Source of the DNA: Candidatus Giovannonibacteria bacterium RIFCSPLOWO2_01_FULL_46_13
Lineage (GTDB): Bacteria > Patescibacteriota > Minisyncoccia > JACPKW01 > UBA11713
NCBI GenBank assembly: GCA_001778785.1
Contig: MFIE01000019.1
Coordinates: 1,072 to 61,374, forward strand
Direction: 5' to 3'
DNA length: 60,303 nucleotides
In this document: piece by piece, positions 3,644 to 60,303 of the stretch
How positions within the stretch are numbered: position 1 is the first letter of the stretch
Layout: each line of letters opens with the position of its first letter
Notes under the pieces: generated by a model
What the model saw: only the letters and a program-made list of their open reading frames with translations
Databases searched by the model: none
What the model was told of the DNA's origin: nothing
Made by a program: the position numbers and the translations under genes

Positions 3644-3893
3644 TTTCTTCTGGGGCCTTCGGGCCGAGGGTATCTTTCAACTCGCTTAGTATTTCGTGTT
3701 TCCTTAAAAAAATTTCGTTCTTCAGCGCCGGGCTTAGTTCAGATAAATATAAGACCCGGTTTTTTATTTTAGCCTCGAGTTTGGCGTTCGGAAATTTATT
3801 TTTTATGACGCTAACAGCTTTGGGGCCGAGGTCTTCGGCTTGTGAAAATTTCCGCAGCTTCTGAAGAAAGTTTTCTACCTTAATAAAAGCCAT
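3624..3893 (-). CDS. Small DUF721-like protein downstream of dnaN
   Basis: 89-aa ORF whose start abuts the dnaN stop. Size, basic character and position match the DUF721 proteins usually found next to dnaN. The sequence match is only impressionistic. Confidence 0.45.
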   Translation of the reverse strand: MAFIKVENFLQKLRKFSQAEDLGPKAVSVIKNKFPNAKLEAKIKNRVLYLSELSPALKNEIFLRKHEILSELKDTLGPKAPEEINFQKF

Positions 3894-13669: not shown

Positions 13670-14329
13670 TTATTGTATTTCGGGAGCCCTACCTTTTTCT
13701 ATTTCGCCGGGGTTAAAAAGGCTGTAGTAAAGTTCGACCAATTCATCGGTGTTCAAGGGAGCGACGCGGACGCCGGCCGAAGTTAATCCTTGGGCGACGG
13801 TATCGACCCGCTGGAAAATCTGCGTTTTGTATTCTTCGAATTTTTCGTCCGGAATTTTTTTCACTTCGTTTTTCTTTCCGGAAAAAATTCCCAGGAGCGA
13901 ATCGAGCGCGCCCTTGGGCGTTTCAAAAGCCGGCGGGTCGTAAGGGACGACGGCGTAAAAAGATTTCGTCACCGTATTGGAAGTCTCCACGAAATTTTTT
14001 ATGAATTCGATATATTCGCGCGTCTGGATTTTAAGTAGTTCGTTAAGCTGGTTTTTCTCCGCTTCTTTCAGCGTCTCGAGATACGGCGTTATATTTAATT
14101 TCCTCGACTGTATGAAAAACTGCACGGTGAAATCGAGCGAGTTCAGAAAATTTTGGTACTGATAGATAGTAGCTTCCTGTTCCTCCGCGGACTTTAAGGA
14201 AAAATTTAAAGAAGAAGCCATGAGGATCATGCGCAACCCCCCGTTTTTTAACACGACAATCCCGTCCCGGATTTCCCGTATCGGTACGAATTCCTGCGAA
14301 CTTCTTGCGTTTAATTTAGCTTGGGCCAT
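13670..14329 (-). CDS. Probable detached N-terminal domain of the VirB4-like ATPase
   Basis: 219-aa ORF that stops 1 nt before the VirB4 ATG, in a different frame. 219+600 aa approximates a full-length VirB4/TraC. The N-terminus FVPIREIRDGIVVLKNGGLRMIL resembles the start of Gram-positive VirB4 homologues. Confidence 0.5.
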   Translation of the reverse strand: MAQAKLNARSSQEFVPIREIRDGIVVLKNGGLRMILMASSLNFSLKSAEEQEATIYQYQNFLNSLDFTVQFFIQSRKLNITPYLETLKEAEKNQLNELLKIQTREYIEFIKNFVETSNTVTKSFYAVVPYDPPAFETPKGALDSLLGIFSGKKNEVKKIPDEKFEEYKTQIFQRVDTVAQGLTSAGVRVAPLNTDELVELYYSLFNPGEIEKGRAPEIQ

Positions 14330-34896: not shown

Positions 34897-35739
34897 ATGG
34901 CAGAAGACCAAGGACGTAGAGATAATCGGCCGCCCTTCAAAATAACCTCCTTTGAGGTTGCTATGGAGCCGCGGTTCATTGAGGGAATTCCTGGAAAGGA
35001 AGACCCACTCAACAAAGATCGGTATGAATTTGATCTGTCGGTTATCGTTGCGCATCGCTCGGGCGGAGCGCCGCGAGAAATACAGCAGGTTGTGTGCGAC
35101 ATGGGGTCGCACGTTTCTCAACATGGTACTGGGCCAGGAGGAAAAATAATTTTTCCTATGTATTCCCTGTTGCCTGGCATTTTTGTTGCAGGTGCCCGTC
35201 TGGCGAATGACCCACCAAATAACAGGATTACTATTCCTGTGGTCATTCGTGAATTGACTGAGCAGCAAAAAGAGATTGCTGCTCTCGAGCATCGTAAGCA
35301 TGTCGCCGGGCTTAGGAGGGACGTGGAGAAGGCCGAGAAGGGGCAAGAAGAAGAAAAACCAAAACTCAAAAAGCTTGCGCCGCCAGCGGTCGAAGCCGCA
35401 GGGGACGAAGGAAGTTATAAAATTTCTGTCTCTATATCTTACGATGACGGTGAAAGTGCGAGTGACATTCCAGTGAGGTTTCTTATTTCGAAGTTGGGCA
35501 AGCCCGCAGAAATTCATGACGAGGCAACAGATGAGCGGGGCTTCGCAACTTATGATCTAGAGTTCAAAGAGAAGGAGTGTGATGTCGTCGTACAAATTAG
35601 GAGCTACGAACACAAAATCGATAATTTGTACGGACCGTCGCGATATAAGAGAATAGAAATCCCCGAGCCCTCAGAGAAGGGTTTGTCGGGATCGTTTTGG
35701 CAGATAATAAAACGCGCCTGGAAAGGAGAAGGGGTATGA
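34897..35739 (+). CDS. Hypothetical soluble protein (two beta-rich halves joined by a charged linker)
   Basis: 280-aa ORF with an SD-like AAGGAAAGGA upstream. Its stop overlaps the next start (ATGA). The antisense ORF 34744..35517 has unnatural composition. Confidence 0.6.
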   Translation: MAEDQGRRDNRPPFKITSFEVAMEPRFIEGIPGKEDPLNKDRYEFDLSVIVAHRSGGAPREIQQVVCDMGSHVSQHGTGPGGKIIFPMYSLLPGIFVAGARLANDPPNNRITIPVVIRELTEQQKEIAALEHRKHVAGLRRDVEKAEKGQEEEKPKLKKLAPPAVEAAGDEGSYKISVSISYDDGESASDIPVRFLISKLGKPAEIHDEATDERGFATYDLEFKEKECDVVVQIRSYEHKIDNLYGPSRYKRIEIPEPSEKGLSGSFWQIIKRAWKGEGV

Positions 35740-36281
35740 AAAGATGGGTTTGGAGATATGTGTACGCGCTCCGGCGCGACAACAATACCAGAATGAAAAC
35801 CCTCTGGGTCTTTACAGGACTTTTATTGGTTTTCAATCTAGGAGTGCTCGGATCAGGATCAGTATCCTGGCCTGTTCACTCCGATGAGGCACAACGTTAC
35901 TACAACGCGTACTTTCAGGGTAAATTTATGACCGACCAGGAGCTTCTGAGCACCTACGAAGTGGTCACTGGAAGTATAGGCTTATTCTTTGGGTGGATGT
36001 TTGGTTGGATACGATGGTTCATGTGGCGACTGTGGCTCGTTCTATTTGTGGCGACTGTGGTATATACGCCCCTCGCCTACAGAGATGAGTTTACCAAACT
36101 GAAACTAGGGATAAGCAGAAGTTTCCGCGAACAACGTGGAGCAGAAGCTACTGGTGGTCCGCGGGTACCTCTTTCAGGAGGGGTTAAGGCAGGCAACGAA
36201 GGTGGCCTCACTTTCTGGCAGTATATGAAGGGCGAAATCATCTGGGATATTCTCAGAGATTTTGTTTTCAAAAGGAGGTAA
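35736..36281 (+). CDS. Hypothetical membrane protein
   Basis: Start set at the internal ATG (MKRWVWRY...) preceded by GGAGAAGGGG. Three hydrophobic helices. Confidence 0.55.
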   Translation: MKRWVWRYVYALRRDNNTRMKTLWVFTGLLLVFNLGVLGSGSVSWPVHSDEAQRYYNAYFQGKFMTDQELLSTYEVVTGSIGLFFGWMFGWIRWFMWRLWLVLFVATVVYTPLAYRDEFTKLKLGISRSFREQRGAEATGGPRVPLSGGVKAGNEGGLTFWQYMKGEIIWDILRDFVFKRR

Positions 36282-36287
36282 TTGACA

Positions 36288-37460
36288 ATGAACGTTACAT
36301 TCCAACAGTTGTTACCCTGGTCAGTAGGAGCAGTATTGGCGGTGTTTGCGATGTGGATGGGTGGGATTGTGAGTAGTTTCTGGGCAACACTCGGAATCCT
36401 TGGGTTTCTGGTAATTCTAGGGTCGCTATGGCTATTGCCTGCTTTTAGGCGATTTGCGGCGATTGTCTTCGTTGGCTTGGTGGTGGTGTGGTTTGTTGCC
36501 CCTGGAATCGCATACTGGTTTAGAACCAGCTGGCCAATTTTGGCAGACACCCTGACCAGGCGATCTATAGACGGCGAATTAAAGCTGTCGGAGTTAGGCG
36601 ATCCCTCTGCGCTTGTAGCTAGGATGGGCGTGGCAAAATATTGTCGCGAACTTGATAGGTTGCAGGGAGAGTGGGTCGCTAACCGTCTCAGTCATGAATT
36701 AGATAGTGTAAGACAGGTGAACCCCCTTGTGTTTGAGAAGCCTCCCCTCCCCAACTCTAAGAATGAGAAGAATATTCTCGCGTGGGTTAAGGTTATAGAA
36801 GCACGTCGTGCAGAATGCGCAAAACTAATTCTGCAGACTGGCCAGAAGACGACGGGAGTTTCAACGTCACCTGCACCAAGAAGATGGGTGGAAGGTTTCA
36901 GGGACTTCTTCATGGATAACCTCGAACTCGCGGTTTGGGCTATCGCTCTTCTGTTGGTAGCTGGTGTTGCCATCGCTTGGCTTAAAGGTCAAATGCCGAC
37001 CTGGCCAGCCGCAAAAACGGCGGCCATTATAATTGCGGTGGCGGTGGTTGTGACTATACTTACGCCAGAAGTTAAGGCAGCGTATGTCGGCTGGAAGGCT
37101 GGTTCGCCTCTGCCTTCGACATCGGAGCCGACGAGACCAGAGCCGGTGCTCATGCCAAATGGGGCGTTATACTTACCCCAAAGGTCCGAGTTTGTTCTCG
37201 GTGCGGGTACCGAACAGCGTTTCAGATTTGATTCGCTTGGTTTTGTAGCGATAGAGGGGAATCACACTATAATATGTGATCCACTTTGTAGGGACGAGAG
37301 CGGTATTATGGTTCATGAGTTGCCAGTTAGGACGGCGGAGTGGAAACAGCGGCGGGGTGGAAAGCCGTGTTTGAAGGACAAGGAGGCGTTCTACGTTACT
37401 ATACGTGGAGACGAAACTACTACCCTAAGAGCCCGCACCCCGAATGACAACCCATGTTAA
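36288..37460 (+). CDS. Hypothetical polytopic membrane protein with a C-terminal soluble domain
   Basis: ATG at 36288 lies 9 nt after AAAGGAGG (the track lists a TTG at 36282). About 6 TM helices, then a Cys-containing tail of roughly 110 aa. Confidence 0.55.
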   Translation: MNVTFQQLLPWSVGAVLAVFAMWMGGIVSSFWATLGILGFLVILGSLWLLPAFRRFAAIVFVGLVVVWFVAPGIAYWFRTSWPILADTLTRRSIDGELKLSELGDPSALVARMGVAKYCRELDRLQGEWVANRLSHELDSVRQVNPLVFEKPPLPNSKNEKNILAWVKVIEARRAECAKLILQTGQKTTGVSTSPAPRRWVEGFRDFFMDNLELAVWAIALLLVAGVAIAWLKGQMPTWPAAKTAAIIIAVAVVVTILTPEVKAAYVGWKAGSPLPSTSEPTRPEPVLMPNGALYLPQRSEFVLGAGTEQRFRFDSLGFVAIEGNHTIICDPLCRDESGIMVHELPVRTAEWKQRRGGKPCLKDKEAFYVTIRGDETTTLRARTPNDNPC

Positions 37461-44322: not shown

Positions 44323-44586
44323 TTACAAGTCTCTATAAACATCTCGGCGATGATCTATCTCGAAGAAGATAGCTTCGTCGGCATCTTGAAAGTAAAATAA
44401 TACCCGCCAACTGCGGGTTACGCGAAAGGAAAACGCATGTTCTAATCCTTTTATCTTCTTTATGTGAAGTCTTGGGTCGCGCCAATTTTCCATAAAACGT
44501 TTTTCTTGAATGTCATAGATATGTCTAATTGGCTTTGGAACCGCTCGAAAAGACTTTATGAAGTCTTCAGTTTTTATTATTTCCAT
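44323..44586 (-). CDS. RelE/ParE-superfamily type II toxin
   Basis: 87 aa with HAFSFRVTRSWRVLFYF...AIFFEIDHRRDVY. Overlaps the upstream small ORF by 10 nt. Confidence 0.6.
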   Translation of the reverse strand: MEIIKTEDFIKSFRAVPKPIRHIYDIQEKRFMENWRDPRLHIKKIKGLEHAFSFRVTRSWRVLFYFQDADEAIFFEIDHRRDVYRDL

Positions 44587-45205: not shown

Positions 45206-45595
45206 CTAAGCGACTATTTTGAGAAGCTCAAATTTTGCGAAATCGCGGTGTCCAAGATGGCTCTTGGCTCCGAATCGCTTATCGCAATAGCTTTGGGTAA
45301 AGCTTGAGCTCGTCCCAATAAGCTTTGATCGCTCGATGCCCAGTTTGTAAGCCACCTCATCGCCCTTGTACGGCATGTCTAGCGAGTGATCCAGAAGAAC
45401 TTTATCCGGACCAAACTCGTTTACCATGGAGCAGATTTCTTCCAAAGTCTCAACATACTTGAAGTCGTTCCCTTCTTTTTGAAGCCGTAAACGGTTGCAG
45501 GGGACAAGCGCTAAAACTTCATGTCCTTCAGCCTTGAGTACCTCAAGCAGTCCAAATAGATCACCGATATCATCTTCAATAATTGCGATCTTCAT
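45206..45595 (-). CDS. Stand-alone receiver (CheY-like) domain protein, atypical
   Basis: MKIAIIEDD start and LLDHSL at the phospho-acceptor position. No output domain. Confidence 0.45.
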   Translation of the reverse strand: MKIAIIEDDIGDLFGLLEVLKAEGHEVLALVPCNRLRLQKEGNDFKYVETLEEICSMVNEFGPDKVLLDHSLDMPYKGDEVAYKLGIERSKLIGTSSSFTQSYCDKRFGAKSHLGHRDFAKFELLKIVA

Positions 45596-48825: not shown

Positions 48826-49212
48826 ATGTCAGCTTTAACTCAATTTCGTTCTATCGAAAAAGAACTGCAAGTTGCCTGCGGTAAAAACTACGGAAGTGAT
48901 TTTCGTCACTGCATTATCTGCGGGCGATTAGTTAAAGAACACAACCAGATGCATTTCGCAGATTCTCCTCTCTTTGAAATTGATAGAGTTCTGGGAAATA
49001 ACCAAATTTCTCAAGGAAAACTCCTCCAAGCTTTGAAAGCGAGGGGTAATGGAGAAGCCTTGAGAATATTCCGCTCTGGATACTATCCTCGGGATCCTTC
49101 CGGATATCTCGGCGGACATCTTGTTGCAGGAAGGATTGACATGGATAACCCAACAACTCTTGAAGAAGTACTCGATGCAATATGCGATATCATCGAGAGC
49201 CGTAACCGTTAG
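48826..49212 (+). CDS. Hypothetical protein
   Basis: 128-aa ORF with a strong SD (TAAGGAGA) 6 nt upstream. No recognisable motif apart from a CIICG...H cluster. Confidence 0.55.
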   Translation: MSALTQFRSIEKELQVACGKNYGSDFRHCIICGRLVKEHNQMHFADSPLFEIDRVLGNNQISQGKLLQALKARGNGEALRIFRSGYYPRDPSGYLGGHLVAGRIDMDNPTTLEEVLDAICDIIESRNR

Positions 49213-51310: not shown

Positions 51311-52867
51311 ATGGTTGTGCTTATTATTTTGGATGGGTTCGGGGTTTCACAGGATCCGGAATCGACCTTCTGGGTCGCGCGAAGAAATAACTTCGAACGC
51401 TTCGAAAAGTCCTACCCATTTACCACCCTTCAGGCCTCCGGCATCGCCGTGGGGCTCGCTTGGGGAGAGGAAGGCAATTCTGAAGTTGGCCACTTAATTT
51501 TGGGCGCGGGAAAAACCATCTACCACCACCTTCCGCGAATTTCCATCGCGATCCAGGACGGGACATTTTTCAAAAACGAATCTTTCAAGAAAGTTTCGGC
51601 TAAAATCAAAGAGAATAACGGCGCCTTGCACTTGATGGGCCTTTTTTCTTCGGGCTCGGTGCACGCCTACCCGGACCATCTGTATGCGCTTTTAGAATTT
51701 GCCAAGCGGGAAAATTTAAATAAAGTTTATCTGCATCTTATTACGGACGGCCGCGACGCGCCTTCGAGGGAAGCCAAGAATTTTGTCGCCTCGCTCGAGG
51801 AACGCATTTCCAAAGTTTATCCCTTCGCCAAAATCGCCTCTATCGTCGGGCGGGATTACGCCATGGACCGCGACAACGATTGGGACAAGATCGGAAAAAC
51901 TTACAATCTTTTTGTAAAAGGGGAGGGAAATAAATTCGAATCAGCTTCGAAATATTTGGATGAAGAATATAAAAAAGAAATCACGGACGAATTTATCGAG
52001 CCGGGGTACGACGGAAGCGAAGAGTCCCGGATAAAAAACGGGGACGGCGCCATCTTTTTTAATTTTCGGGAAGACTCCGCGCGAGAACTTACGCAGGCGT
52101 TCACGCTCCCGAGCTTTGATAAATTCCCGCGCGAGAAGTTGTCCGATTTGTTTTTTGTAACCATGACGGAGTACGAAGCGCGCTCGCCGGCCTTGGCCGC
52201 TTTCGGCCCCTTGGATGCGTTTACCCCTTTTGCAAAAGTCCTCTCGGACAATAATATTAAACAATTCCACATCGCGGAGACGGATAAATACGCGCACGTC
52301 ACATATTTTTTCAACGGCGGGAACGAAAGCCCTTTTCCGGGGGAAGACCGCTTTTTGGCGCCCTCTTTGCCGAGCTCGCATTACGACCGGACCCCCGAAA
52401 TGTCCGCGCGGAAGATTACGGAGGAAGTCTTGAGGCGTCTCGACGACTACCAATTTATACTTATAAATTTCGCCAACGCCGATATGGTCGGGCATACCGG
52501 AAGTTTTGAAGCGACGGTAAAAGCGCTCGAGACTTTAAACGACGAGGTCGGAAAAATCGTCGACCAAGTTTTGGAAAAAGGCGGGACGGTACTTATAACC
52601 GGGGACCACGGCAACGCCGAAGAAAAACGGTACCGCGTTACGGGTGAGAAAAAAACCAAACACAGCTTGAACCCCGTGCCGCTTTTCCTGCTCGACAAGA
52701 AATTCGAACGGGACAGGCCGCGCGAGAAAGAAGAAATTTTGAAAGACTACGCCAAGGTCGGCGGAGTCATCTCGGACGTCGCGCCAACGATTTTGGAATT
52801 GATGAAGATCCCCAAACCACCGGACATGACCGGCATCTCCCTCCTAGAAAAAATTACCAAGAGATAA
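51311..52867 (+). CDS. gpmI: 2,3-bisphosphoglycerate-independent phosphoglycerate mutase
   Basis: ILDGFG, GNSEVGHL, ITDGRD, NFANADMVGHTG, and TGDHGNAE. Confidence 0.9.
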   Translation: MVVLIILDGFGVSQDPESTFWVARRNNFERFEKSYPFTTLQASGIAVGLAWGEEGNSEVGHLILGAGKTIYHHLPRISIAIQDGTFFKNESFKKVSAKIKENNGALHLMGLFSSGSVHAYPDHLYALLEFAKRENLNKVYLHLITDGRDAPSREAKNFVASLEERISKVYPFAKIASIVGRDYAMDRDNDWDKIGKTYNLFVKGEGNKFESASKYLDEEYKKEITDEFIEPGYDGSEESRIKNGDGAIFFNFREDSARELTQAFTLPSFDKFPREKLSDLFFVTMTEYEARSPALAAFGPLDAFTPFAKVLSDNNIKQFHIAETDKYAHVTYFFNGGNESPFPGEDRFLAPSLPSSHYDRTPEMSARKITEEVLRRLDDYQFILINFANADMVGHTGSFEATVKALETLNDEVGKIVDQVLEKGGTVLITGDHGNAEEKRYRVTGEKKTKHSLNPVPLFLLDKKFERDRPREKEEILKDYAKVGGVISDVAPTILELMKIPKPPDMTGISLLEKITKR

Positions 52868-52875
52868 GAGAGAGT

Positions 52876-53097
52876 TTATTTAAAATATTCCTCGGTGAGT
52901 TGAGATTGGCGCAAGATCGAGCGGAATGTTCCGACAGGTATTTCTTTTCGATTTGCTGGGACGATGACAGTTAAATTCTTCTTTCGAAATTTAACATGGC
53001 TTCCACGCTGTGAAATATAAAGAAAGCCCTCCCGCTGAAGGACTTTTGTTATATGATTTGATGAATAAAGTTTAGGCACGGCTAATCGAAAATTCAA
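52876..53097 (-). CDS. hicA: HicA-family toxin
   Basis: GSHVKFRKKN...VPANRKEIPVGTFRSILRQ. A GTG at 53079 (VPKLYSS...) is a plausible alternative start, 8 nt into hicB. Confidence 0.75.
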   Translation of the reverse strand: MNFRLAVPKLYSSNHITKVLQREGFLYISQRGSHVKFRKKNLTVIVPANRKEIPVGTFRSILRQSQLTEEYFK

Positions 53098-53302
53098 CCA
53101 ATTCAGGTTTTATCACTTTCGTTATGTGTTCCCTTGGTTTGGCGTCTTCGAAATATAATTCGAGGGCCTCATTTAAATTTGCGAGAGCTTCCTTTTTTGT
53201 TTTACCAAAGCTGGAAATATCAACATTAAGACACTGGGCAACGTACTGTTTGCCTTCTTTCCAAACCACAGATTTAAATCCGGAGATTTTCATATGTTTC
53301 AT
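53072..53302 (-). CDS. hicB: HicB-family antitoxin
   Basis: Start trimmed to MKHMKISGF. WKEGKQYVAQCLNVDISSFGKTKKEALANLNEALELYFE matches the HicB/UPF0150 pattern. Confidence 0.65.
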   Translation of the reverse strand: MKHMKISGFKSVVWKEGKQYVAQCLNVDISSFGKTKKEALANLNEALELYFEDAKPREHITKVIKPELVEFSISRA

Positions 53303-53362
53303 TATATAGTGAAGACGCAGCCGGGGCAAATTAATTTCCAAATCAGCCAGAGGCATAAAAAT

Positions 53363-53464
53363 AAAAAACCGGAAGTAGGAGGGGTCTTGGGCACGAGGCC
53401 ATCATCCCCGGAGGGGGCCCCCAAAAGGAGGGATTGGGGGGACTCCTCCTACTTCCGGTTTTTT
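53363..53464. terminator. Long inverted repeat (about 18 bp plus A/T runs) enclosing a roughly 60-nt GC-rich insert, downstream of clpP
   Basis: Left arm AAAAAACCGGAAGTAGGAGGGGTC pairs with right arm GACTCCTCCTACTTCCGGTTTTTT (one G:U). The loop contains GGGGGCCCCC and CCCC/GGGG runs. Confidence 0.5.
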
Positions 53465-53471
53465 ATTTAAA

Positions 53472-54107
53472 TTATCTTTTCTTTTTTTCGTCCAGTGAAA
53501 TAAATCCGTTCTTTGTTTTTATTATCTGGTCGACTATCCCGTATATTTTCCCTTCGTTCGCGTCCATGTAAAAATCGCGGTCGGTATCTTTCTCGATTTT
53601 AGAAAGAGGCTGGTTGGTGTGCCGGGAGAGGATGTGGTTAACTTTGTCTTTGATGTGCAGGATGTGGTCCGAGGTAATTTTCAAATCCGAAGCTTGTCCT
53701 TCCATCGCGCCAAAAACTTGGTGGATCATTATTTCCGCATTCGGCAGGGCCAATCTTTTTCCTCTCATTCCAGAAGCCAAGAGGACGGCGGCGGCGGAGG
53801 CGGCGAAACCGACGCAGATCGTGGAGACGTCCGGTTTCACATATTGCATTGCGTCATAAATCGCAAGAGCCGAAGAGACGGAGCCTCCCGGGGAATTTAT
53901 ATATAGGTTGATGTCTTTTTTCGGGTCTTCGTGCTGTAAAAACAGGAGCTGGGCGATGACGGTGTTGGCGACGGCGTCGTTTATGGGCCCGCCCAAGAAA
54001 ATGATGCGTTCTTTTAGTAATCTCGAATAAATGTCGTACGCCCGTTCCCCGAAACTGGTCTTTTCGATGACGGTCGGTATCAAAACTTGGTTATATTCGT
54101 CGTTCAT
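53472..54107 (-). CDS. clpP: ATP-dependent Clp protease proteolytic subunit
   Basis: [26 protein letters not shown] (Ser), IMIHQ (His), and DTDRDFYM (Asp). Confidence 0.95.
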
Positions 54108-54195
54108 TGGAGTAAAGTGTAATTTATACGGGGACTAAAGTCAATTGTCCAAAAACCCCTTATTTTATAGCCTATTTTAGGCAATCAAATAGTCA

Positions 54196-54238
54196 ATCTT
54201 GTCTATCTCTTGACAAGATATGGTATCCATGCTATACT
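54196..54238 (+). promoter_or_regulatory. Island promoter P1 with an overlapping inverted-repeat operator
   Basis: TTGACA (54210-54215), 17 nt, TATACT (54233-54238). Inverted repeat ATCTTGTC (54196-54203) / GACAAGAT (54212-54219). Confidence 0.55.
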
Positions 54239-54284
54239 AGGAAAATAAGGTGAGCGAAGGGCAGAGGGGAGTGAAACGGGGTAC

Positions 54285-54313
54285 TTGACAAGAATTAACC
54301 ACGGTGGTATAAT
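54285..54313 (+). promoter_or_regulatory. Island promoter P2, perfect consensus with extended -10
   Basis: TTGACA (54285-54290), 17 nt, TGgTATAAT (54305-54313). Confidence 0.65.
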
Positions 54314-54319
54314 AGACAA

Positions 54320-54432
54320 ATAATTGAAAAGTGAATAGGTTAACTACTTTCTTTAGAGGAGAAAGCCGGTAATACGAAAAAAGGCGATTTGGCGTAACTT
54401 CTCTAGGGACTGTGCTAAATCGCCTTTTTTTG
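54320..54432 (+). ncRNA. Candidate short terminated transcript/leader from P2 (about 113 nt)
   Basis: Starts about 7 nt after the P2 -10 element. Internal hairpin CTTTCT/AGAAAG. Ends in terminator AAGGCGATTT...AAATCGCCTTTTTTT (54377-54432). No ORF inside. Confidence 0.4.
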
Positions 54433-54555
54433 TTGCTACGCACTTCGTAGCCTTGGCGAAGTAGTGAGTCGAGATGGAGTGAAGAACAAAAATCATATAC
54501 AGTGTCTTCCTCCATCTGGGCTCATTTAGAAAATTATATAGAAGGAGGTGAGAAA

Positions 54556-54669
54556 ATGGTCGAGGAATCTGGGAAGTTTGTTCTCGTCGATGGCTTCGTG
54601 GCAAGCGCGAAGCCGATGACGAAGAGGGAGATCGCGGATCTGCGCGAGCAGGTTCGCGAGAGTAAGTAG
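54556..54669 (+). CDS. 37-aa hypothetical protein
   Basis: GAAGGAGGTG SD 6 nt before the ATG. MVEESGKFVLVDGFVASAKPMTKREIADLREQVRESK. Confidence 0.45.
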   Translation: MVEESGKFVLVDGFVASAKPMTKREIADLREQVRESK

Positions 54670-54815
54670 GCAAAAAACAGGAAAGGAGGTGCGTATGTCT
54701 TGTACATATTGCACCTCCCGACCTCAACCCAGCGCTCGAAGTAATTTCGAGAATTGAGTTGAGGGTGATCTTTGGAAAAAATAGTGTGCGAAACAAATTG
54801 AAAAGGAGAAAGAAA

Positions 54816-55046
54816 ATGGATTTTAAGGACTATCAGAAGCTAGAGGAAAGGGTGGGGGTCGCGGTGGTTTTTATTTTTTCCTCGGTTGCGTTGTCGGCCC
54901 TTTATATATGGCCGACTGGACTTACCTTTGTTCTCTGCTTCGCGGCCGCTTTCGCGGTTGGCGAGGCGACAAAGATTTGGCTGGGAGGAAAGTATGACCT
55001 CGTGACGAAGAGGATGGCGGAGGAGAGGATACGATTTATCGTATAA
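54816..55046 (+). CDS. 76-aa hypothetical membrane protein
   Basis: Start set at the ATG after AAAAGGAGAAAG. Two hydrophobic helices. The 3' end lies inside the 75-nt repeat. Confidence 0.5.
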   Translation: MDFKDYQKLEERVGVAVVFIFSSVALSALYIWPTGLTFVLCFAAAFAVGEATKIWLGGKYDLVTKRMAEERIRFIV

Positions 55047-55096
55047 CCTCTCCCCTCAACTGAGCTGACGAGAGAAATTTTCGAAGGCTCTGAGAG
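55022..55096 (+). repeat. 75-nt hairpin module, copy A
   Basis: GGAGAGGATACGA-TTTA-TCGTATAACCTCTCC followed by CCTCAACTGAGCTGACGAGAGAAATTTTCGAAGGCTCTGAGAG. Repeated at 57138-57211. Confidence 0.8.
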
Positions 55097-55115
55097 TTTG
55101 GAAGTTCTTTGAAAA

Positions 55116-55319
55116 TCAAATATCTTCGGGTGAAAGGCCAGCTTGTTTTAGGATTGATTTCAGCGTACCTTTTGGAATGTCTTTGTTGTGATAAGGCACA
55201 ATTGCACGTTTGCCATCGCTATTCCTATAAATAAAATGGCTTCCTTTGGAGCGTACGAAGTGGAAACCATTTTGCTCAAGCAGTTTGATGACTTGCTTTG
55301 GCGTTAGGGATTTAGGCAT
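55116..55319 (-). CDS. hicA: HicA-family toxin (second copy)
   Basis: MPKSLTPKQVIKLLEQNGFHFVRSKGSHFIYRN... Confidence 0.8.
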   Translation of the reverse strand: MPKSLTPKQVIKLLEQNGFHFVRSKGSHFIYRNSDGKRAIVPYHNKDIPKGTLKSILKQAGLSPEDI

Positions 55320-55608
55320 GAGTAAACGAGGCTGTTTTTCTAGGAAGGTCTATTGTGACTTCTCCGGTGTATGTTGGAGATTCATTGGGAATAGGCTCGC
55401 CCCGTTCAATCATATCTTCAAGATAGAGCTCAATAGCTTCTTTAGCCATTTTTTGAGCTTCATCAATGTCTCTTCCAAAGGTTATGCAGCCTGGTAACGC
55501 TGGAACGAGCACGGTAAAGCCGCCTTCCGGTTCTTTGCGTAGAATAATTGGAAATCGCAACTGACCATCAAATTTAGTGCGCTTTATTTTGTGAGTTTTC
55601 TTGACCAT
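55312..55608 (-). CDS. hicB: HicB-family antitoxin (second copy)
   Basis: FPIILRKEPEGGFTVLVPALPGCITFGRDIDEAQKMAKEAIELYLE. 8-nt overlap with hicA. Confidence 0.75.
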   Translation of the reverse strand: MVKKTHKIKRTKFDGQLRFPIILRKEPEGGFTVLVPALPGCITFGRDIDEAQKMAKEAIELYLEDMIERGEPIPNESPTYTGEVTIDLPRKTASFTHA

Positions 55609-55760
55609 AGCGCTATCTTACTATGACGAAACGGATGAATCAATGTTTCCGCCAGCTGGCGGAGAGTCGAGACGAGGTTAGAAGATAAAATTGTAATCTC
55701 ATCTCGATTCAATAGTGAATCGAACTGTTCTTCGAAAAAAAATTGAAAGGAGGTGCCAAA

Positions 55761-55934
55761 ATGGCCCCAAAAATAAAGTGCGACACATGCGGTCAGGAAG
55801 CCGCATGGGAGTGTCAGAATCTTGATGGTGCGCATGATGGGGATCGCGAGATCTTCGCGTGTGCTTCGTGCAGCTGGGAAAATCATGCCAGCTGCAAAAT
55901 GATTCCGGTCTCAACCCAGGGCGCCGAGGGCTAA
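55761..55934 (+). CDS. 57-aa Cys-rich (zinc-ribbon-like) hypothetical protein
   Basis: ATG after GAAAGGAGGTG. CDTC...C...CASC...C pattern. Confidence 0.5.
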   Translation: MAPKIKCDTCGQEAAWECQNLDGAHDGDREIFACASCSWENHASCKMIPVSTQGAEG

Positions 55935-55999
55935 ATCGGCAGGAGCGGACGAAACTCCTCATAGAGGAGTTCTTCGAAAAAAATGAAAGGAGAATTATT

Positions 56000-56269
56000 A
56001 TGGGCGTTTTTACGCTCGATAAAACGGCCCAGGAAGAGTTGAACGATCTCTTCCGCAATGAGGATCATTGGTCCTCTGAGGGAACTCCTGGAGAAGGACA
56101 TTCTTCATTGGTGCGGTATGTTTCTAATCTCATTATCGCCGCACTTATGGCGAGTGGTAAGGTGGAGATCCCCGCGCCACTTGGGACCGAAGAGGTTTTG
56201 GAGACAGAAGTCATTGAATTGGCAGCTGTACTCCGAAGGAGGGCCGACCCTGACACACCGATGTCGTAA
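56000..56269 (+). CDS. 89-aa hypothetical protein
   Basis: ATG after GAAAGGAGAA. No recognisable motif. Confidence 0.5.
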   Translation: MGVFTLDKTAQEELNDLFRNEDHWSSEGTPGEGHSSLVRYVSNLIIAALMASGKVEIPAPLGTEEVLETEVIELAAVLRRRADPDTPMS

Positions 56270-56409
56270 AACTCGGGAACCTGCCGGGCGCTGGCAGAAG
56301 TCGCAAGACTTGAAACGGCGCAAGTCCGATGCAAGGTCGGACGACTCCATCTGAAGTTCAACAAAAAAAGAACTACGATGGTGATGTTCTTTAATCAAAA
56401 AAATGCAAA

Positions 56410-56445
56410 GGGGAGAAGAATGCAAAATATTGCATTCTTCTCCCC
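56410..56445 (+). other. Perfect 16-bp hairpin with a 4-nt loop
   Basis: GGGGAGAAGAATGCAA-AATA-TTGCATTCTTCTCCCC. Confidence 0.8.
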
Positions 56446-56447
56446 GA

Positions 56448-56517
56448 ACGCTCGCGAGATGTGTGTCTCGCCTGATGAGCCCGCCAAAGGCGGGCAAGTC
56501 CAAAAGGACGAAAGCGT
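56448..56517 (+). ncRNA. Candidate type III hammerhead ribozyme (variant with an extra hairpin)
   Basis: ACGCU-C17, stem I GCGAGA/UCUCGC, CUGAUGA, stem II GCCCGCC/GGCGGGC, extra GUCC-AAAA-GGAC, then GAAA-GCGU closing stem III. Confidence 0.55.
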
Positions 56518-56524
56518 GTGTTCT

Positions 56525-56639
56525 TTGAATTAAATATTATAGATTTCTGGTTGCCGTTTTGATTCTGATTTTTCGGAGTTGAAGCGGCGGCCGGAAAATC
56601 TAACCATTTCGGTTCGACCAAATAATTTCAATCCGGAGG
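56525..56639 (+). repeat. 115-nt leader repeat, copy 1 (upstream of 56646 gene)
   Basis: 111 of 115 positions identical, with no indels, to 57224-57338. Ends in the SD TCCGGAGG. Confidence 0.9.
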
Positions 56640-56645
56640 CATGAG

Positions 56646-57092
56646 ATGAAAAAAGTAATTTGGCTGTCCCGACATGATTTGTCGGCAGCCCAAGTTAAGG
56701 CCCTTCGTGAACTCCATGGGGAGGACGCGGAGATTGTGAAAGAATCCCCGTCGCTTAACGGCCCGGAAGGTTTACTCGATTTCATCGAGAAGACCGATAA
56801 GGCTGGGTACGGTAACACGTTTGTGTACGCCGTGGCCGCCGCCGTGCATTACATTTCGGCGACGATCAGAGGAAAGCCGTTCGGAATTTTCGAAAACCAT
56901 CCGCAAAAGCGGATGGATGGAAGCTTCGGACTAGCGGCAGTGTACTGGGTAAACGTTAATCGTAACTACCCATGCACGGACGAACGGATGCCGGCGGGAC
57001 ATGACTCTCTTCGAAAGGTCTGGGTTAACCCAGACCCAATGACTGATTTCGGGGAGACTTTAATCCCCGTTGTCCGAGACGCTAACATATAG
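56646..57092 (+). CDS. 148-aa hypothetical protein
   Basis: ORF preceded by a GGAGG SD. No recognisable motif. Confidence 0.55.
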   Translation: MKKVIWLSRHDLSAAQVKALRELHGEDAEIVKESPSLNGPEGLLDFIEKTDKAGYGNTFVYAVAAAVHYISATIRGKPFGIFENHPQKRMDGSFGLAAVYWVNVNRNYPCTDERMPAGHDSLRKVWVNPDPMTDFGETLIPVVRDANI

Positions 57093-57137
57093 TTCTTTTT
57101 TGAAGGTTTCGAGATTGAACCTGAAAAATCTCACAAG

Positions 57138-57211
57138 GGAGAGGCTACGATTTATCGTACAACCTCTCCCCTCAACTGAGCTGACGAGAGAAATTTCGAA
57201 GGCTCTGAGAG
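57138..57211 (+). repeat. 75-nt hairpin module, copy B
   Basis: Differs from 55022-55096 by 2 substitutions and 1 deleted T. Confidence 0.8.
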
Positions 57212-57223
57212 GTAGAAAGTTCC

Positions 57224-57338
57224 TTGAATTAAATATCATAGATTTCTGGTTGCCGCTTTGATTCTGATTTTTCGGAGTTGAAACGGCGGCCGGAAAATCT
57301 AACCATTTCGGTTCGACCAAACAATTTCAATCCGGAGG
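57224..57338 (+). repeat. 115-nt leader repeat, copy 2 (upstream of 57343 gene)
   Basis: See copy 1. Confidence 0.9.
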
Positions 57339-57342
57339 TGCG

Positions 57343-57963
57343 ATGAAGAAAATTTTTCTCTCCGATGAGGAGAAAGGATGGTCAATTCCCAAGTTGGCCG
57401 AGAAGTACGGCGTGTCTCGTGCGACCGCGTGGCGCGCCAAAAAACGGGGCTGGCTTGTGCCAGCATATCTCGAGAAGAAAATGATTATTTCTGATGACGG
57501 GATTCCGGTCTCCAAAGAAGAAATTATCAGAGATGCCAAGACGGGAGTCTTCGGTTTCTTGAAGAGGGTTTTAGCTGGTAAGAATTTCAAACAGGCTATA
57601 GCCCCCTTTTCAACGGACGATATGGTCCAGGAGGCCACAAAAAGGCTTTATGAATTAACTGGCCATGAAAAGTTTACAGACCGCAGCTGGCGAATCAATG
57701 TCGCATGGGTTGCGGCGAGGGATTTTATTCAGGGGTCTGTGTGGAAGCATGGACTCGTCGATAGAATCCCGGATAAATGGGAACTTCCAGAAGAACCAAG
57801 AATCTTTGGGGAAAATAGTGTTTTTCTGGCGGAGCTTCGGTGGAGATTGGGAGAAAGGAGGTGGGAGTTATTGTGGGATTGGGCTAAAGGAAGTAGTAAT
57901 CTCAAACCGCCGCAGGATTTAATTCGTGCGGCACGAAAGGAGACTGGACTATGTCCCTCCTAG
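57343..57963 (+). CDS. HTH-domain protein with weak sigma-70 region-2-like segment
   Basis: N-terminal HTH IPKLAEKYGVSRATAWRAKKRG. The mid-region DDMVQEATKRLYEL...RINVAWVAARDFI is reminiscent of sigma region 2 (weak). Confidence 0.5.
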   Translation: MKKIFLSDEEKGWSIPKLAEKYGVSRATAWRAKKRGWLVPAYLEKKMIISDDGIPVSKEEIIRDAKTGVFGFLKRVLAGKNFKQAIAPFSTDDMVQEATKRLYELTGHEKFTDRSWRINVAWVAARDFIQGSVWKHGLVDRIPDKWELPEEPRIFGENSVFLAELRWRLGERRWELLWDWAKGSSNLKPPQDLIRAARKETGLCPS

Positions 57964-58742
57964 TTTCAATCATCTGTAGATTGTGTGGGTCGGATTTCCA
58001 GGTCGACCCAAAAACATTCGGGGCGCTCGGTTTACGGGGCGTCCCGAAAAAATGCCCCTCCTGCTGCGATAAAAAGCAGGAGCGGCCCCCGGAGGCGACG
58101 GTGATCAATCGCCAGTGCCTCCAGGATTTTCCGGCAGTGCGAGTGTGCTTGCCGGAAAATCTCTTCGCGCCTTTCAAGGCGCAGAATGATGATCGTCCGT
58201 GTTTGCGGGCGGTTATAAAAGGAAGCTCTCTTGGCAGAGGAGCTTCTTGGTCAGGTCGGCTCGATATTTATTGTCTAGCCGAAAAGTTGCCCTCCGTTGC
58301 CCGTGTACGGGTGATGGAAGTAACCCATGTCTCCGGCCAGCGTCGCATGGAGCGGCACAAGGATGCGGAGGGGGCGGTACCAGGAGTATCGCTTTCGCAC
58401 CCCGGCCAGCCGACGAGAACGGTGGAGGTGGAGTATTCACCCACCTATACCTATCTCGTTTTGGAGCCGACGGGTGAAGAACCTTTGGCGGCCCTGATCT
58501 TCACGAGCGTGAATTACAAAACCACGCTCAAGGGGTTCGGGAGGCAATGGTATGCCTCATTGGATACCTCGGCGGCCCTCTGGGTGCGTGAACTTTCAAG
58601 CTCAGCACGCTCCGGTCGCTTCGGTGCTTATGGCGCCGTGGCAGTGGTTGACGAAGGTCATCTCGTCATCGCTAAGCAGTGGGGTGACATCGAGTCGCAC
58701 ACTGCTTTCTCCGGTGATAAAAAGGAGGTTGTTGAGGGGTAA
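57951..58742 (+). CDS. Hypothetical protein with an N-terminal zinc ribbon (CxxC...CxxCC)
   Basis: CRLCGSDFQVDPKTFGALGLRGVPKKCPSCCDKK. Overlaps the upstream gene by 13 nt. Confidence 0.55.
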   Translation: MSLLVSIICRLCGSDFQVDPKTFGALGLRGVPKKCPSCCDKKQERPPEATVINRQCLQDFPAVRVCLPENLFAPFKAQNDDRPCLRAVIKGSSLGRGASWSGRLDIYCLAEKLPSVARVRVMEVTHVSGQRRMERHKDAEGAVPGVSLSHPGQPTRTVEVEYSPTYTYLVLEPTGEEPLAALIFTSVNYKTTLKGFGRQWYASLDTSAALWVRELSSSARSGRFGAYGAVAVVDEGHLVIAKQWGDIESHTAFSGDKKEVVEG

Positions 58743-58777
58743 GTTCTTTGAAAGGAGCTATGGTTGGTTAAAAAATT

Positions 58778-58992
58778 AGCGTTCTGAAGACGCTCATGTT
58801 GCAACTTAATGTTGCATTAGGAAACCGTAAGGTTTCCAGGAGAGCCGATGCTCTGCCACATCCCAGGGGTGCTAAGAACACCCGGAAATGTGGGAGCTAG
58901 GTCTCCAAATAAGCACAAGCGAACTCGATTAATTCGAGCCCACCGCTTGTGCTTCCCCCAGAGTTTTTAATTAAATTTGAAATTTCTGGGGG
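58778..58992 (+). ncRNA. Candidate structured non-coding RNA of unknown class (eight consecutive hairpins)
   Basis: Includes GGAAACC-GUAA-GGUUUCC, an 11-bp stem AAGCACAAGCG/CGCTTGTGCTT, and CCCCCAGA/TCTGGGGG. No ORF longer than 3 codons. Confidence 0.4.
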
Positions 58993-59129
58993 AGATCTTT
59001 GAATTAAGTTAAAAAAAATAATACGAAAGGAGTAAATAATCTATATGTGGCTGGTGGTTCGGTATATGAGAGAAGTAGAAATACTTTTCTCCCTCTAATA
59101 TCAAGCCATCAGCCATATGAAGATTAACC

Positions 59130-59155
59130 AAAAACCCGCCTCAGGCGGGTTTTTG
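59130..59155. terminator. Bidirectional terminator downstream of the H+-PPase gene
   Basis: AAAAACCCGCC-TCA-GGCGGGTTTTT. Confidence 0.75.
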
Positions 59156-59173
59156 GTTTGCTTTTAAATTTTT

Positions 59174-60303
59174 CTAGAGAATGCCGACGAGGAGGAGGGC
59201 GACGATGTTTACGATTTTAATCATAGGGTTTATCGCCGGGCCCGCTGTGTCTTTGTACGGGTCGCCAACGGTGTCGCCGGTTACTGCGGCTTGGTGCGCG
59301 GGAGATTTCTTCCCGCCAAAATTTCCTTCCTCAATATATTTCTTGGCGTTATCCCAGGCCGCTCCTCCCGAAGTCATGGCGAGAGCTTGGAAAAGTCCGG
59401 TTATGATCACTCCGATCAAAAGTCCTCCCAAGGCTTCTACTCCGAAGATGAAAGCGACGAGTATGGTTATTGCGATCGGAAGGATCGCCGGCAAAATCAT
59501 TTCCCGGAGCGCGGCTTTGGTTACGATATCAACCGCGCGGGCGTAGTCCGGCTTGTCGATCCCTTCCATTATTTTTTTCTCGCGGAATTGCCTGCGGACT
59601 TCTTCAACGATGGAGCCCGCGGCTTTGCCGACGGCGAGCATGGAGAGGGAAGCGAAGATGTACGGAAGGATGCCGCCGATAAATAATCCGAGAAGGACGG
59701 AAGGGTCCTGGAGTTCGAAGGTTGCCGGTTTGCCAAGCCTTTCTAATTCGGAGACGAACGCGCCGAAGAGTACGAGTGCGGCGAGTCCGGCCGAACCGAT
59801 CGCGTATCCTTTGGTGACGGCTTTGGTCGTGTTGCCGACGGCGTCCAGGGCATCGGTAACTTCGCGGACGTTTTCCGGAAGCCCGGCCATCTCGGCGATC
59901 CCCCCGGCGTTATCCGTTATCGGTCCGAACGAATCTATCGCGACAATTATTCCCGCCAAAGAAAGCATGGACGTTGCGGCGATGGCGATCCCGTACAGGC
60001 CCGCGAAATAAAAGGCGAGGTAACTTCCCATGGCGATCGTGAAAATCGGGAGCGCGACCGCTTCCATGGAAACGGCGAGGCCCATGATTATATTTGTCCC
60101 GTGGCCAGAGGTGGAAGCGGCCGCAATATTTTTAACCGGGCGGAATCTTTTTGAAGTGTAGTATTCGGTGAAGATGACCATGAAGATCGTGACGATGATC
60201 CCGATCAATGCCGCGATGTACAGGTTAACGGGATCTCCGGGAATGGTTTGGATTTCATTTCCGAGAAGGTCGGCCGAGACGCCCATGGGGTGGACGAATA
60301 TTT
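59174..60303 (-). CDS. hppA: Membrane-bound H+-translocating pyrophosphatase, N-terminus beyond the window end
   Basis: [19 protein letters not shown] and [22 protein letters not shown] signatures. The reading frame stays open to the window edge. Lys in GNTTKA is the signature reported for K+-independent enzymes. Confidence 0.9.

Follow-up and report, generated by a model that had tools for sequence, protein, structure and literature searches.

A putative mosaic, partly phage-derived accessory island at the variable hppA-clpP junction of Candidatus Giovannonibacteria

A stretch of 60,303 nucleotides of contig MFIE01000019.1 from Candidatus Giovannonibacteria bacterium RIFCSPLOWO2_01_FULL_46_13 (hereafter the window) carries a strain-specific accessory island of about 5 kb between the core genes clpP and hppA, at ~54172-59173. 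Positions 52800-59400 were read directly and their open reading frames (ORFs) listed, the gene calls being longest-ORF heuristics. On the plus strand the island holds five small ORFans (p37, p76, p57, p89 and p148) and a terminal overlapping pair, p206 and p263, all led by Shine-Dalgarno (SD) sequences; a hicAB pair lies among them in the opposite orientation, and the gaps contain repeats and RNA-like structures. Several of these features had been proposed in an earlier note made from the letters alone, which is cited below where a result bears on it.

As relatives we used the contexts looked up for ClpP homologues of 78-89% identity. The gene order NusA, hppA, variable segment, clpP, gpmI, rny, HU is kept in seven of them, and the contents of the variable segment differ. 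In L046 only 13 bp separate the hppA stop from the clpP start; such adjacency in relatives had been set beforehand as a test of the island claim, which it bears out. L040 and L044 carry a hicB gene alone, L042 and L047 a hicB-hicA pair with genes for 122-aa and 352-aa products, and L041 and L043 two other small genes each, the cargo being different across relatives and 0.4-2.6 kb long where the gap is not empty. Since the relatives show either an empty gap or different cargo, the hppA-clpP junction is a hypervariable hotspot. None of p37, p76, p57, p89, p148, p206 and p263 is found at the junction of these closest relatives, and the flank is conserved with L040 up to 54171. The features expected of a hotspot island are all present, namely conserved flanking core genes, an empty site (L046), lineage-specific cargo and a deviant composition of the coding sequences (CDSs). 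Records of 22 metagenome contigs contain an identical p263; the ten of these that were aligned, not all of which reach the junctions, are 99.9-100% identical over the covered stretch and display zero structural variants. An apparent structural difference in L009 proved to be a difference of gene calling only. The identical p263 and p206 bear the NCBI name hypothetical protein, Candidatus Giovannonibacteria bacterium RIFCSPLOWO2_01_FULL. As for the cargo of the relatives, that of L041 (8943-9898, minus strand in the locus) consists of an SD-led gene for a lipoprotein-like 109-aa product and a gene for a 138-aa product that, by eye, resembles a nucleoside 2-deoxyribosyltransferase.

The reversed hicAB pair described in the earlier note was recovered with both of its domains in Pfam. 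The hicA gene (55116-55319, minus strand) matches PF07927 HicA_toxin at 7.9e-24 and hicB (55312-55608, minus strand) matches PF15919 HicB_lk_antitox at 1e-14; hicB is upstream of hicA with an 8-nt overlap, and the pair has no SD and a low GC content. To judge from these domains, it is a type II toxin-antitoxin (TA) pair. SD-led plus-strand genes flank it on both sides. Since the island HicB is 82% identical to the HicB of L040 at the same place, with DNA similarity continuing to 55648, hicAB is an old resident of the junction. In addition, a plus-strand TTGACA promoter beside clpP is also carried by L040 and L042. The idea of one foreign block therefore has to be abandoned, given an ancestral occupant inside it and a clpP-side promoter common to relatives. 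A second hicA/hicB-like pair was noticed on the minus strand (52876-53356 and 53359-53468) between gpmI and clpP, followed by an inverted repeat with 28-nt arms; since only ~85-180 nt separate clpP from gpmI in L040-L047, this pair represents a further strain-specific insertion beside clpP.

The island had also looked richer in G+C by eye. This impression holds for the plus-strand CDSs, with a GC of 0.48-0.57 against a host CDS mean of 0.463 (standard deviation 0.031), but is not visible in 1-kb windows (0.44-0.54, inside the range of the contig). In codon usage, the pooled plus-strand genes deviate from the host more than do 99.4% of the size-matched sets of host genes in a resampled null, and both hicAB pairs are AT-richer than the host.

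A clearer contrast concerns the translation signals. All eight plus-strand starts listed in the earlier note (54556, 54695, 54816, 55761, 56000, 56646, 57343 and 57951) are preceded by GGAG or GGAGG at a spacing of 4-8 nt, versus 7 of the 57 other called genes in the window with a GGAG/GAGG/AGGA core at -18..-4 (Fisher's exact p = 1.3e-6). The proposed difference from the host is thus real, but it follows accessory ORFans with leaders and not the island alone: six genes elsewhere in the window (34897, 35736, 36282, 45206, 48826 and 13670) are SD-led as well, all of them ORFans without a Pfam match, which removes the SD style as a mark peculiar to the island. Strong promoters lie 57-90 nt upstream of 34897, 45206 and 48826, and the genes at 35736 and 36282 directly follow that at 34897. 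Strong SDs are also found on the junction cargo genes of L041, L042 and L043, and p263 and its partner have them in all other lineages examined. Of the ~22 core genes that are first in their operon, 12 have a -10-like hexamer whose end is 0-13 nt from the ATG (for instance those at 51311, 45781, 24085 and 9752, and clpP, 53472-54107), and the remaining core genes begin 0-4 nt from the preceding gene. A clpP promoter-like site, TTGACT-17-TACACT (54116-54144, minus strand), ends 8 nt from the clpP ATG, pointing to a leaderless or near-leaderless clpP mRNA. This pattern suggests that leaderless mRNAs are widespread among the core genes of this genome, and the SD contrast would mostly lie between accessory genes whose mRNAs have leaders and core genes that are leaderless or coupled. 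A published survey detected the anti-SD motif itself in no more than 48% of the 16S sequences of Parcubacteria (PMC9297842). The SD-led ORFans outside the island (34897-37460, 45206-45595, 48826-49212 and 13670-14329) look like accessory genes with island-style expression, the first of these intervals being a three-gene block with membrane-like products.

The two last genes of the island, p206 (57343-57963, plus strand) and p263 (57951-58742, plus strand), overlap by 13 nt and belong to a patchily distributed two-gene module that is also present in tailed-phage genomes. For p263, 22 homologues with 31-62% identity were found. The family shares an N-terminal CxxC...CPxC motif, a zinc ribbon or treble clef that is matched by zf_Tbcl in 12 of 21 members and by Zn_ribbon_8 in 6 of 21, followed by a strongly conserved all-beta domain with the motifs YKTTLKGFGRQW, SARSGRFG and VDDxHPV and many invariant Arg, Lys, His and Asp residues. 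An AlphaFold model built from the family alignment has a mean predicted local distance difference test (pLDDT) score of 89 and is almost all-beta after the ribbon. Compared with the PDB, this model gave no fold match (best E = 0.07, TM-score < 0.2) apart from local zinc-ribbon matches, and in BFVD the ribbon alone was matched; a search of the p263 profile against PDB sequences returned C2H2-type noise only, and no HxxxCxxC domain of the ZAS anti-sigma type is present in p263. The distant members come from a Saccharibacteria metagenome-assembled genome, a Calditrichota contig, Anabaena azotica and Acaryochloris. Wherever the sequence sufficed, a partner gene of DNA-binding type abuts or overlaps the p263 homologue upstream. 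Members of the p263 family were also found on three IMG/VR contigs, which are tailed phages carrying genes for tape-measure and tail proteins, terminase, portal, major head protein and endolysin. The pair of phage L023 comes after the replication genes and is oriented divergently to the terminase-portal-head operon, and that of phage L021 follows an amidase gene, behind its own promoter.

The partner protein p206 combines an N-terminal helix-turn-helix (HTH; SRATAWRAKKRGW), a middle part resembling sigma-70 region 2 and a C-terminal W..LW.WAKG motif. A word-index search retrieved p206 itself only, and an exhaustive HMMER search delivered a family of 98 cluster representatives with the consensus HTH (SRATAWRAKKRGW) then eDLiQEA..RLLELSGH..F....WR..VA.NAA. 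The Pfam model Sigma70_r2 (PF04542) is matched by 13 of 52 relatives (best 9.7e-6), and the family profile gave sub-threshold hits in the PDB to sigma-F, SigL and other sigma factors at region-2-like positions. There is no Sigma70_r4 match in p206, region 4 being matched by 1 of the 52 relatives. The partners of CPR (candidate phyla radiation), Calditrichota and Saccharibacteria homologues are p206-like, and partners accompanying p263 share a C-terminal FW..vR....EW..lW.WA.G motif. The cyanobacterial partners match Sigma70_r2 together with a GerE/r4-like C-terminus; that of Anabaena aligns along its whole length with the extracytoplasmic function (ECF) sigma model TIGR02937, scoring 33 bits where the cut-off is 42.9. 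A weak match of p206 to the PHROG 'late transcriptional activator' was obtained (E = 0.003). No HTH of the p206 type was confirmed in IMG/VR, where one alignment was too divergent for use.

The surroundings of the pair vary. In L013, L014 and L048 it adjoins a divergent TrmB gene, in L013 it is also near clpP, and in L048 it adjoins HigBA. A stretch of 1.6 kb without a called gene (3275-4867) lies in L048 between the divergent TrmB gene and the partner/p263 operon; it starts with a promoter in the style of the first island promoter (TTGACAAGAT...ATGCTATAtT) and ends with a GTTCTTTGAA core and a long hairpin, both described below. In Acaryochloris (L018, 6029-8823) the p263 homologue and its ECF-sigma-like partner are close to a Cas1 gene, and in Anabaena (L017, 6425-10624) the pair is close to a polynucleotide kinase-phosphatase gene and an unknown 433-aa gene. 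In L011 (8629-11248), a 2,032-bp segment with the partner and the p263 homologue is enclosed by 294-nt inverted repeats, 99% complementary, and adjoins a large serine recombinase (Resolvase/Recombinase/Zn_ribbon_recom). The same segment has the opposite orientation in L012 (1-2444), from another sample, which means either an invertible segment or an assembly flip.

As the earlier note had stated, the non-coding gaps are structured and contain internal repeats. They fold better than shuffled sequences (z = -9.4, -5.8 and -13.6); a 120-nt direct repeat (56520-56639 = 57219-57338) is 96% identical, and a second one, of 59+38 nt (55022-55113 = 57138-57228), is 87-97% identical. An intact unit of ~200 nt is located at 57138-57342 on the plus strand and comprises Element A copy 2 (57138-57213; P1 hairpin, CCTCAACTGAG, P2 hairpin, CTCTGAGAGG), the 10-nt motif GTTCCTTGAA (copy 5, 57219-57228), Element B copy 2 (57243-57296), AATTTCAAT and the SD. 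The other copy of this unit, on the same strand, is divided into two halves precisely at the motif. The left half comes after p76 and consists of Element A copy 1 (55022-55103; P1 hairpin, CCTCAACTGAG, P2 hairpin, CTCTGAGAG) and motif copy 1, GTTCTTTGAA (55104-55113), 2 nt from the hicA stop. The right half (56520-56645) precedes p148 as the 5' untranslated region (UTR) of this gene, with motif copy 4 (56520-56529), Element B copy 1 (56544-56597), AATTTCAAT and the SD. Between the two halves lie hicAB, p57, p89 and a hammerhead-like segment. The ~200-nt unit is also present between unrelated genes in L042/L047, and the core with Element B closes the 1.6-kb non-coding leader of the partner/p263 operon in L048. 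Neither nhmmer nor a covariance model detected further copies in the 360 kb of loci retrieved, exact-pattern scans of IMG/VR for the unit were empty, and no relevant Rfam match appeared at E <= 5, those to mir-3156, Phe_leader and similar being generic hairpin or terminator matches.

Element B is a 24-bp hairpin with a UUUU loop, found upstream of p148, p206, the LysM-like gene of L042 and the L048 pair. RNAalifold applied to these four sequences, which represent three independent lineages for covariation, kept 24 predicted pairs, 4 of them with double compensatory changes; about 12 of the 24 show one-sided, pair-keeping changes, mostly from G.U to Watson-Crick, and essentially none is broken. 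The 7-8 G.U pairs of the hairpin are meaningful only in plus-strand RNA and point to a structure formed there. The 10-nt motif, in its general form GTTCYTYGAA, has six copies in the 60-kb window (55104, 55727, 55969, 56520, 57219 and 58743), all on the plus strand, intergenic and inside the island, with 0.03 expected for this span and strand. Its core is also found at junctions in L040, L042 and L048. The GTTCTTTGAA copies around hicAB, p57 and p89 were considered as a target-site duplication; this was dropped as the sole reading because six motif copies stand at cistron starts and hicAB is ancestral. Judged by eye, the core resembles dif or attC only poorly.

A related structure, Element A' (54686-54760, plus strand), is composed of a GGAGG...CCTCC hairpin, CGACCTCAAC and a second hairpin. 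A hairpin with CGACCTAAAC in L042 is homologous to it, with compensatory changes in the arms and no ATG, and diverged Element A-like hairpins (GGAGG...CCTCC followed by CGACCTMAAC) are found after p37 and after the 352-aa gene of L042. Farther downstream, a perfect 16-bp hairpin (56410-56445, plus strand) is followed by the hammerhead-like element (56446-56519, plus strand; z = -9.4 for the region). Alignment to the type III hammerhead (RF00008) recovers all core nucleotides, CUGAUGAG...CGAAA and GCUC|G, as well as stems I and III, so that the CUGAUGA and GAAA cores and the UC cleavage-site context are intact. On the other hand, the score of the element, 25.0 bits, is below the gathering score of 48.5, an extra hairpin in stem II makes a four-way rather than three-way junction, and it is not conserved in L042; we regard it as a candidate type III hammerhead and no more. 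Two short matches were also noticed. The palindrome CCGCCAGCTGGCGG (55650-55663), exactly where the similarity to L040 stops, is found again in the unit of L042, within its P2 hairpin, and AGCGTGTGTTCTTTGAATT at the right end of the hammerhead-like element (56512-56531) has a 17/18 match in L042 (1925-1945, minus strand), within the 3'-terminal part of the hicB coding sequence. Both may be traces of past recombination.

At the clpP side of the island, the two consensus promoters claimed in the earlier note are indeed discernible as tandem plus-strand sites of the sigma-70 type, each with a TG extension: P1 (54210-54238) agrees with the consensus at 11/12 positions and P2 (54285-54313) at 12/12. 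Promoters of the TTGACAAGAT type similar to those of the island are present in L048 and upstream of the ORFan at 48826. Within the 235-nt leader, an A-tract, a hairpin with 20-nt arms and a T-tract form a bidirectional terminator-like structure (54374-54433). With such a hairpin ~60-120 nt after the tandem promoters (54320-54440), this layout could produce an abundant short RNA or could require antitermination downstream, as at phage late promoters. The opposite end of the island is a structured non-coding tail (58743-59173, plus strand; z = -13.6), containing motif copy 6 (58743-58752), an SD-led mini-ORF of 17 codons (59045-59098) and a bidirectional terminator shared with hppA (59126-59158).

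The remaining plus-strand genes are small ORFans. The 37-aa p37 (54556-54669) is preceded by the SD AAGGAGGTGA, and p76 (54816-55046) has an SD and two hydrophobic segments that, as read from sequence, are transmembrane-like. The 20-codon ORF at 54695-54757 is doubted because it lies inside the Element A' hairpin, whose conserved L042 homologue has no ATG, and it is probably not a gene. The Cys-rich, zinc-finger-like p57 (55761-55934) and the acidic p89 (56000-56269) have motif copies 2 (55727-55736) and 3 (55969-55978) upstream, respectively, and p148 (56646-57092) begins after Element B copy 1. No match was found for p37, p76, p89, p148 and p263 in Pfam, PHROGs, NCBIfam and PADLOC, and p57 has only sub-threshold matches of the zinc-ribbon/PHD type (E 0.01-0.06). 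The sole relative of p148, a weak one (31% over 67 aa), is encoded next to a p263 homologue in L025, and p148 has no match in the PDB or in viral contigs. In keeping with the lack of enzymatic motifs reported earlier, no island ORF belongs to an enzyme family of these four libraries. Outside the island, an 87-aa ORF at 44323-44586 is 57% identical to an 87-aa ORF located 1.7 kb downstream of the L048 p263 homologue; by eye it is RelE/ParE-like, without a Pfam match.

The same four libraries recognise no integrase, transposase, capsid or replication gene in any island ORF. The earlier statement that the island is neither a standard prophage nor an insertion sequence (IS) is therefore upheld: genes for mobility, packaging and capsid are missing, and an IS or transposon is represented in the island by neither a transposase nor terminal inverted repeats. 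The search for att-type direct repeats at the borders gave only CCAAAAACCC (10 nt), which is at chance level and situated inside a terminator stem. Genes shared with phages, as expected of a prophage or satellite, are present in the form of the p263 family (3 IMG/VR tailed-phage contigs). Taken together, we favour, with a probability of about 0.6, the reading that the region ~54172-59173 is a mosaic, partly phage-derived accessory island in the hypervariable hppA/clpP core-gene junction of Candidatus Giovannonibacteria and not a self-mobile element. Several points weigh against this reading and against the functions proposed with it. The link to phages rests on three contigs; the fold of p263 gives no functional clue; p206 itself reaches no sigma model, only its relatives doing so, and weakly; an hhalign comparison with one ECF sigma factor is not significant (E = 0.033), and the single-sequence AlphaFold2 model of p206 is unusable (pLDDT 55). 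The TrmB/clpP surroundings of the pair in L013, L014 and L048 could reflect an old chromosomal neighbourhood rather than recent transfer. Moreover, the promoters, terminators and processing are read from patterns, the leaderless status of core genes from the positions of -10-like hexamers alone, and the pairing of the SDs with the ribosome is predicted only, the 3' end of the host 16S being outside the window.

Other explanations account for part of these data. Nothing in the block marks it as the satellite-like module suggested in the earlier note. A degenerate prophage or phage satellite would be mobile, now or once, as a unit through the integrase and capsid of a helper, with p206/p263 as a module hijacking late activation. 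The p263 family does stand beside late operons in tailed phages, strong tandem promoters with small ORFans resemble a phage early region, p206 has its weak late-activator match, and the L011 pair is placed between inverted repeats beside a large serine recombinase. However, neither integrase nor replication, packaging or capsid genes are present, the border repeat is short and at chance level, hicAB inside the block is ancestral, the clpP-side promoter is common to relatives without the cargo, and empty or rearranged variants are absent from the ten aligned contigs (of 22), not all reaching the junctions; we find this origin quite improbable. Could the island instead be vertically inherited, a fast-evolving and lineage-specific native regulon in which the SD difference is a signature of mRNA leaders only? 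The SD-led ORFans with promoter and leader elsewhere in the window would agree with it, as would the pairs near TrmB or ClpP in L013, L014 and L048, the clpP-side plus-strand promoter of L040 and L042 and a locus that is fixed and invariant in the sampled population. The closest relatives, however, do not have the seven SD-led proteins at the junction, codon usage and GC deviate from the host and the p263 family has a scattered distribution among unrelated phyla and phages, which makes a native regulon very improbable.

A cassette array, its genes exchanged by a site-specific recombinase that is encoded elsewhere and acts on the ~200-nt unit and the GTTCTTTGAA core, would recall integrons and their CALIN (clusters of attC sites lacking an integron integrase) or Xer-dif modules. 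The attC sites of integrons are imperfect palindromes, RYYYAAC ... GTTRRRY, of 57-141 nt. As in such arrays, the island genes are co-oriented and promoterless-looking behind one upstream promoter region, with a structured repeat between them and the TA cassette reversed; the unit is kept between otherwise unrelated neighbours in the window, L042 and L048, one copy is split exactly at the core by the hicAB, p57 and p89 segment, the core is at junctions in L040, L042 and L048, and CCTCAAC...GTTGAGG in Element A', 35 nt apart, recalls the R''/R' boxes of attC. Yet the island encodes neither IntI nor another recombinase, its upstream neighbour is clpP, the core misfits GTTRRRY, the repeat fits the attC/dif consensus poorly, the L042 unit has no core, and units other than Element A' do not close as CCTCAAC...GTTGAGG. 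Besides, the G.U pairs of Element B fit plus-strand RNA only, and the motif stands before p57 and p89 without a unit, so that it could equally be an expression signal or a crossover site. This reading, too, is very improbable. A defence hotspot, in which p206/p263 would be an anti-phage sensor-effector or sigma/anti-sigma pair working alongside hicAB as a toxin of the abortive-infection type, has slightly more in its favour and is nevertheless clearly unlikely. ECF sigma/anti-sigma pairs include the CRISPR-associated CalpS/CalpT, and the likeness consists in a presumably co-transcribed pair, in cyanobacterial partners that are ECF-sigma-like (33 bits, cut-off 42.9) and in one homologue near Cas1; the core-gene-flanked hotspot has changing small cargo and TA pairs, the relatives of the pair have HigBA (L048), Cas1 (L018), polynucleotide kinase-phosphatase (L017) or a serine recombinase (L011) as neighbours, and the C-domain of p263 has its invariant Arg, Lys, His and Asp residues. 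Against it, no PADLOC model matches p263 and the partners are matched marginally only, the CxxC...CPxC ribbon of p263 is not the HxxxCxxC of ZAS-type proteins, p263 has neither a membrane segment nor a match in fold to any solved protein, and phages, too, carry the module beside late genes.

Under the favoured reading of a mosaic accessory island, the following course can be proposed. The plus-strand genes would have been acquired horizontally, at least partly from phage-like sources, and the block itself would no longer be, or never have been, self-mobile. The host sigma-70 holoenzyme would initiate at the tandem promoters and give transcripts with long leaders, most core genes being leaderless or translationally coupled; with long leaders, translation of the island genes would depend on their SD sequences. 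Between the cistrons, the long hairpins, the 10-nt motif and the hammerhead-like element could act on the RNA, in processing, stability or attenuation, like the RNase III sites of phage early operons. The p206 protein (HTH and sigma region-2-like part) and p263 (zinc ribbon and beta domain) would form a complex, to judge from the overlap of stop and start codons between their genes, and this complex would redirect or modulate RNA polymerase in the manner of phage late-gene activators or two-subunit sigma factors. We put forward this action on RNA polymerase tentatively, as possible rather than probable. The hicAB pair could stabilise the locus. A bolder version is rather unlikely in our estimate: p206/p263 would be a so far unrecognised two-subunit system of transcription initiation or reprogramming, of phage origin, travelling with its own RNA device in the 5' UTR (the GTTCTTTGAA core and the 24-bp hairpin), which would also mark exchangeable cassettes at hypervariable CPR junctions.

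Several known systems bear comparison with the island. Small two-subunit or minimal sigma systems and phage late activators include T4 gp55/gp33, Bacillus subtilis SigO-RsoA and the ArpU/RinA families. Like these, p206 is a small sigma-region-2-like protein with a partner, encoded by overlapping genes and, in phage L023, at a late-operon position; unlike them, it shows no detectable sequence relation, adds an N-terminal HTH and has no recognisable region 4, and the zinc ribbon with beta domain of p263 is without a match among solved or viral predicted folds. Phage early operons such as the T7 early region carry RNase III sites. The island has in common with this type its tandem strong host-type promoters, small SD-led ORFans and long perfect intercistronic hairpins, but G.U pairs are numerous in its 24-bp hairpin, the block lies in the chromosome, around a resident TA pair, and processing is only inferred. 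Finally, genomic islands have been reported in Patescibacteria (PMC12455944). With hotspots and islets flanked by core genes the island shares the conserved flanks hppA and clpP, an empty site, lineage-specific cargo, TA pairs and deviant composition; it differs by having no integrase, tRNA target or att repeats, by its size of only 5 kb and by carrying SD-led cistrons in an ordered series, with a conserved RNA unit between them.

Taken by itself, the island is of an ordinary kind, a hotspot islet with a TA pair. As far as our searches of libraries and literature show, no description exists of the p206/p263 families (which have no Pfam, NCBIfam, PHROG-function or PADLOC assignment), of the hairpin unit with its motif, or of so clean a partition between SD-led and leaderless genes in a CPR genome. 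The p206/p263 pair and the hairpin unit represent uncharacterised families with enough homologues for experiments; the pair is shared by CPR chromosomes, cyanobacteria and tailed phages, and p263 offers a confident predicted structure without a PDB or BFVD match. CPR genomes are tiny and have few recognised mobile elements, and the hppA-clpP junction shows accessory turnover without a local recombinase. In such genomes, SD-led accessory genes with a leader, as opposed to SD-less and apparently leaderless core genes, provide a simple sequence marker for accessory genes, and the same split bears on whether Parcubacteria ribosomes still use the anti-SD.

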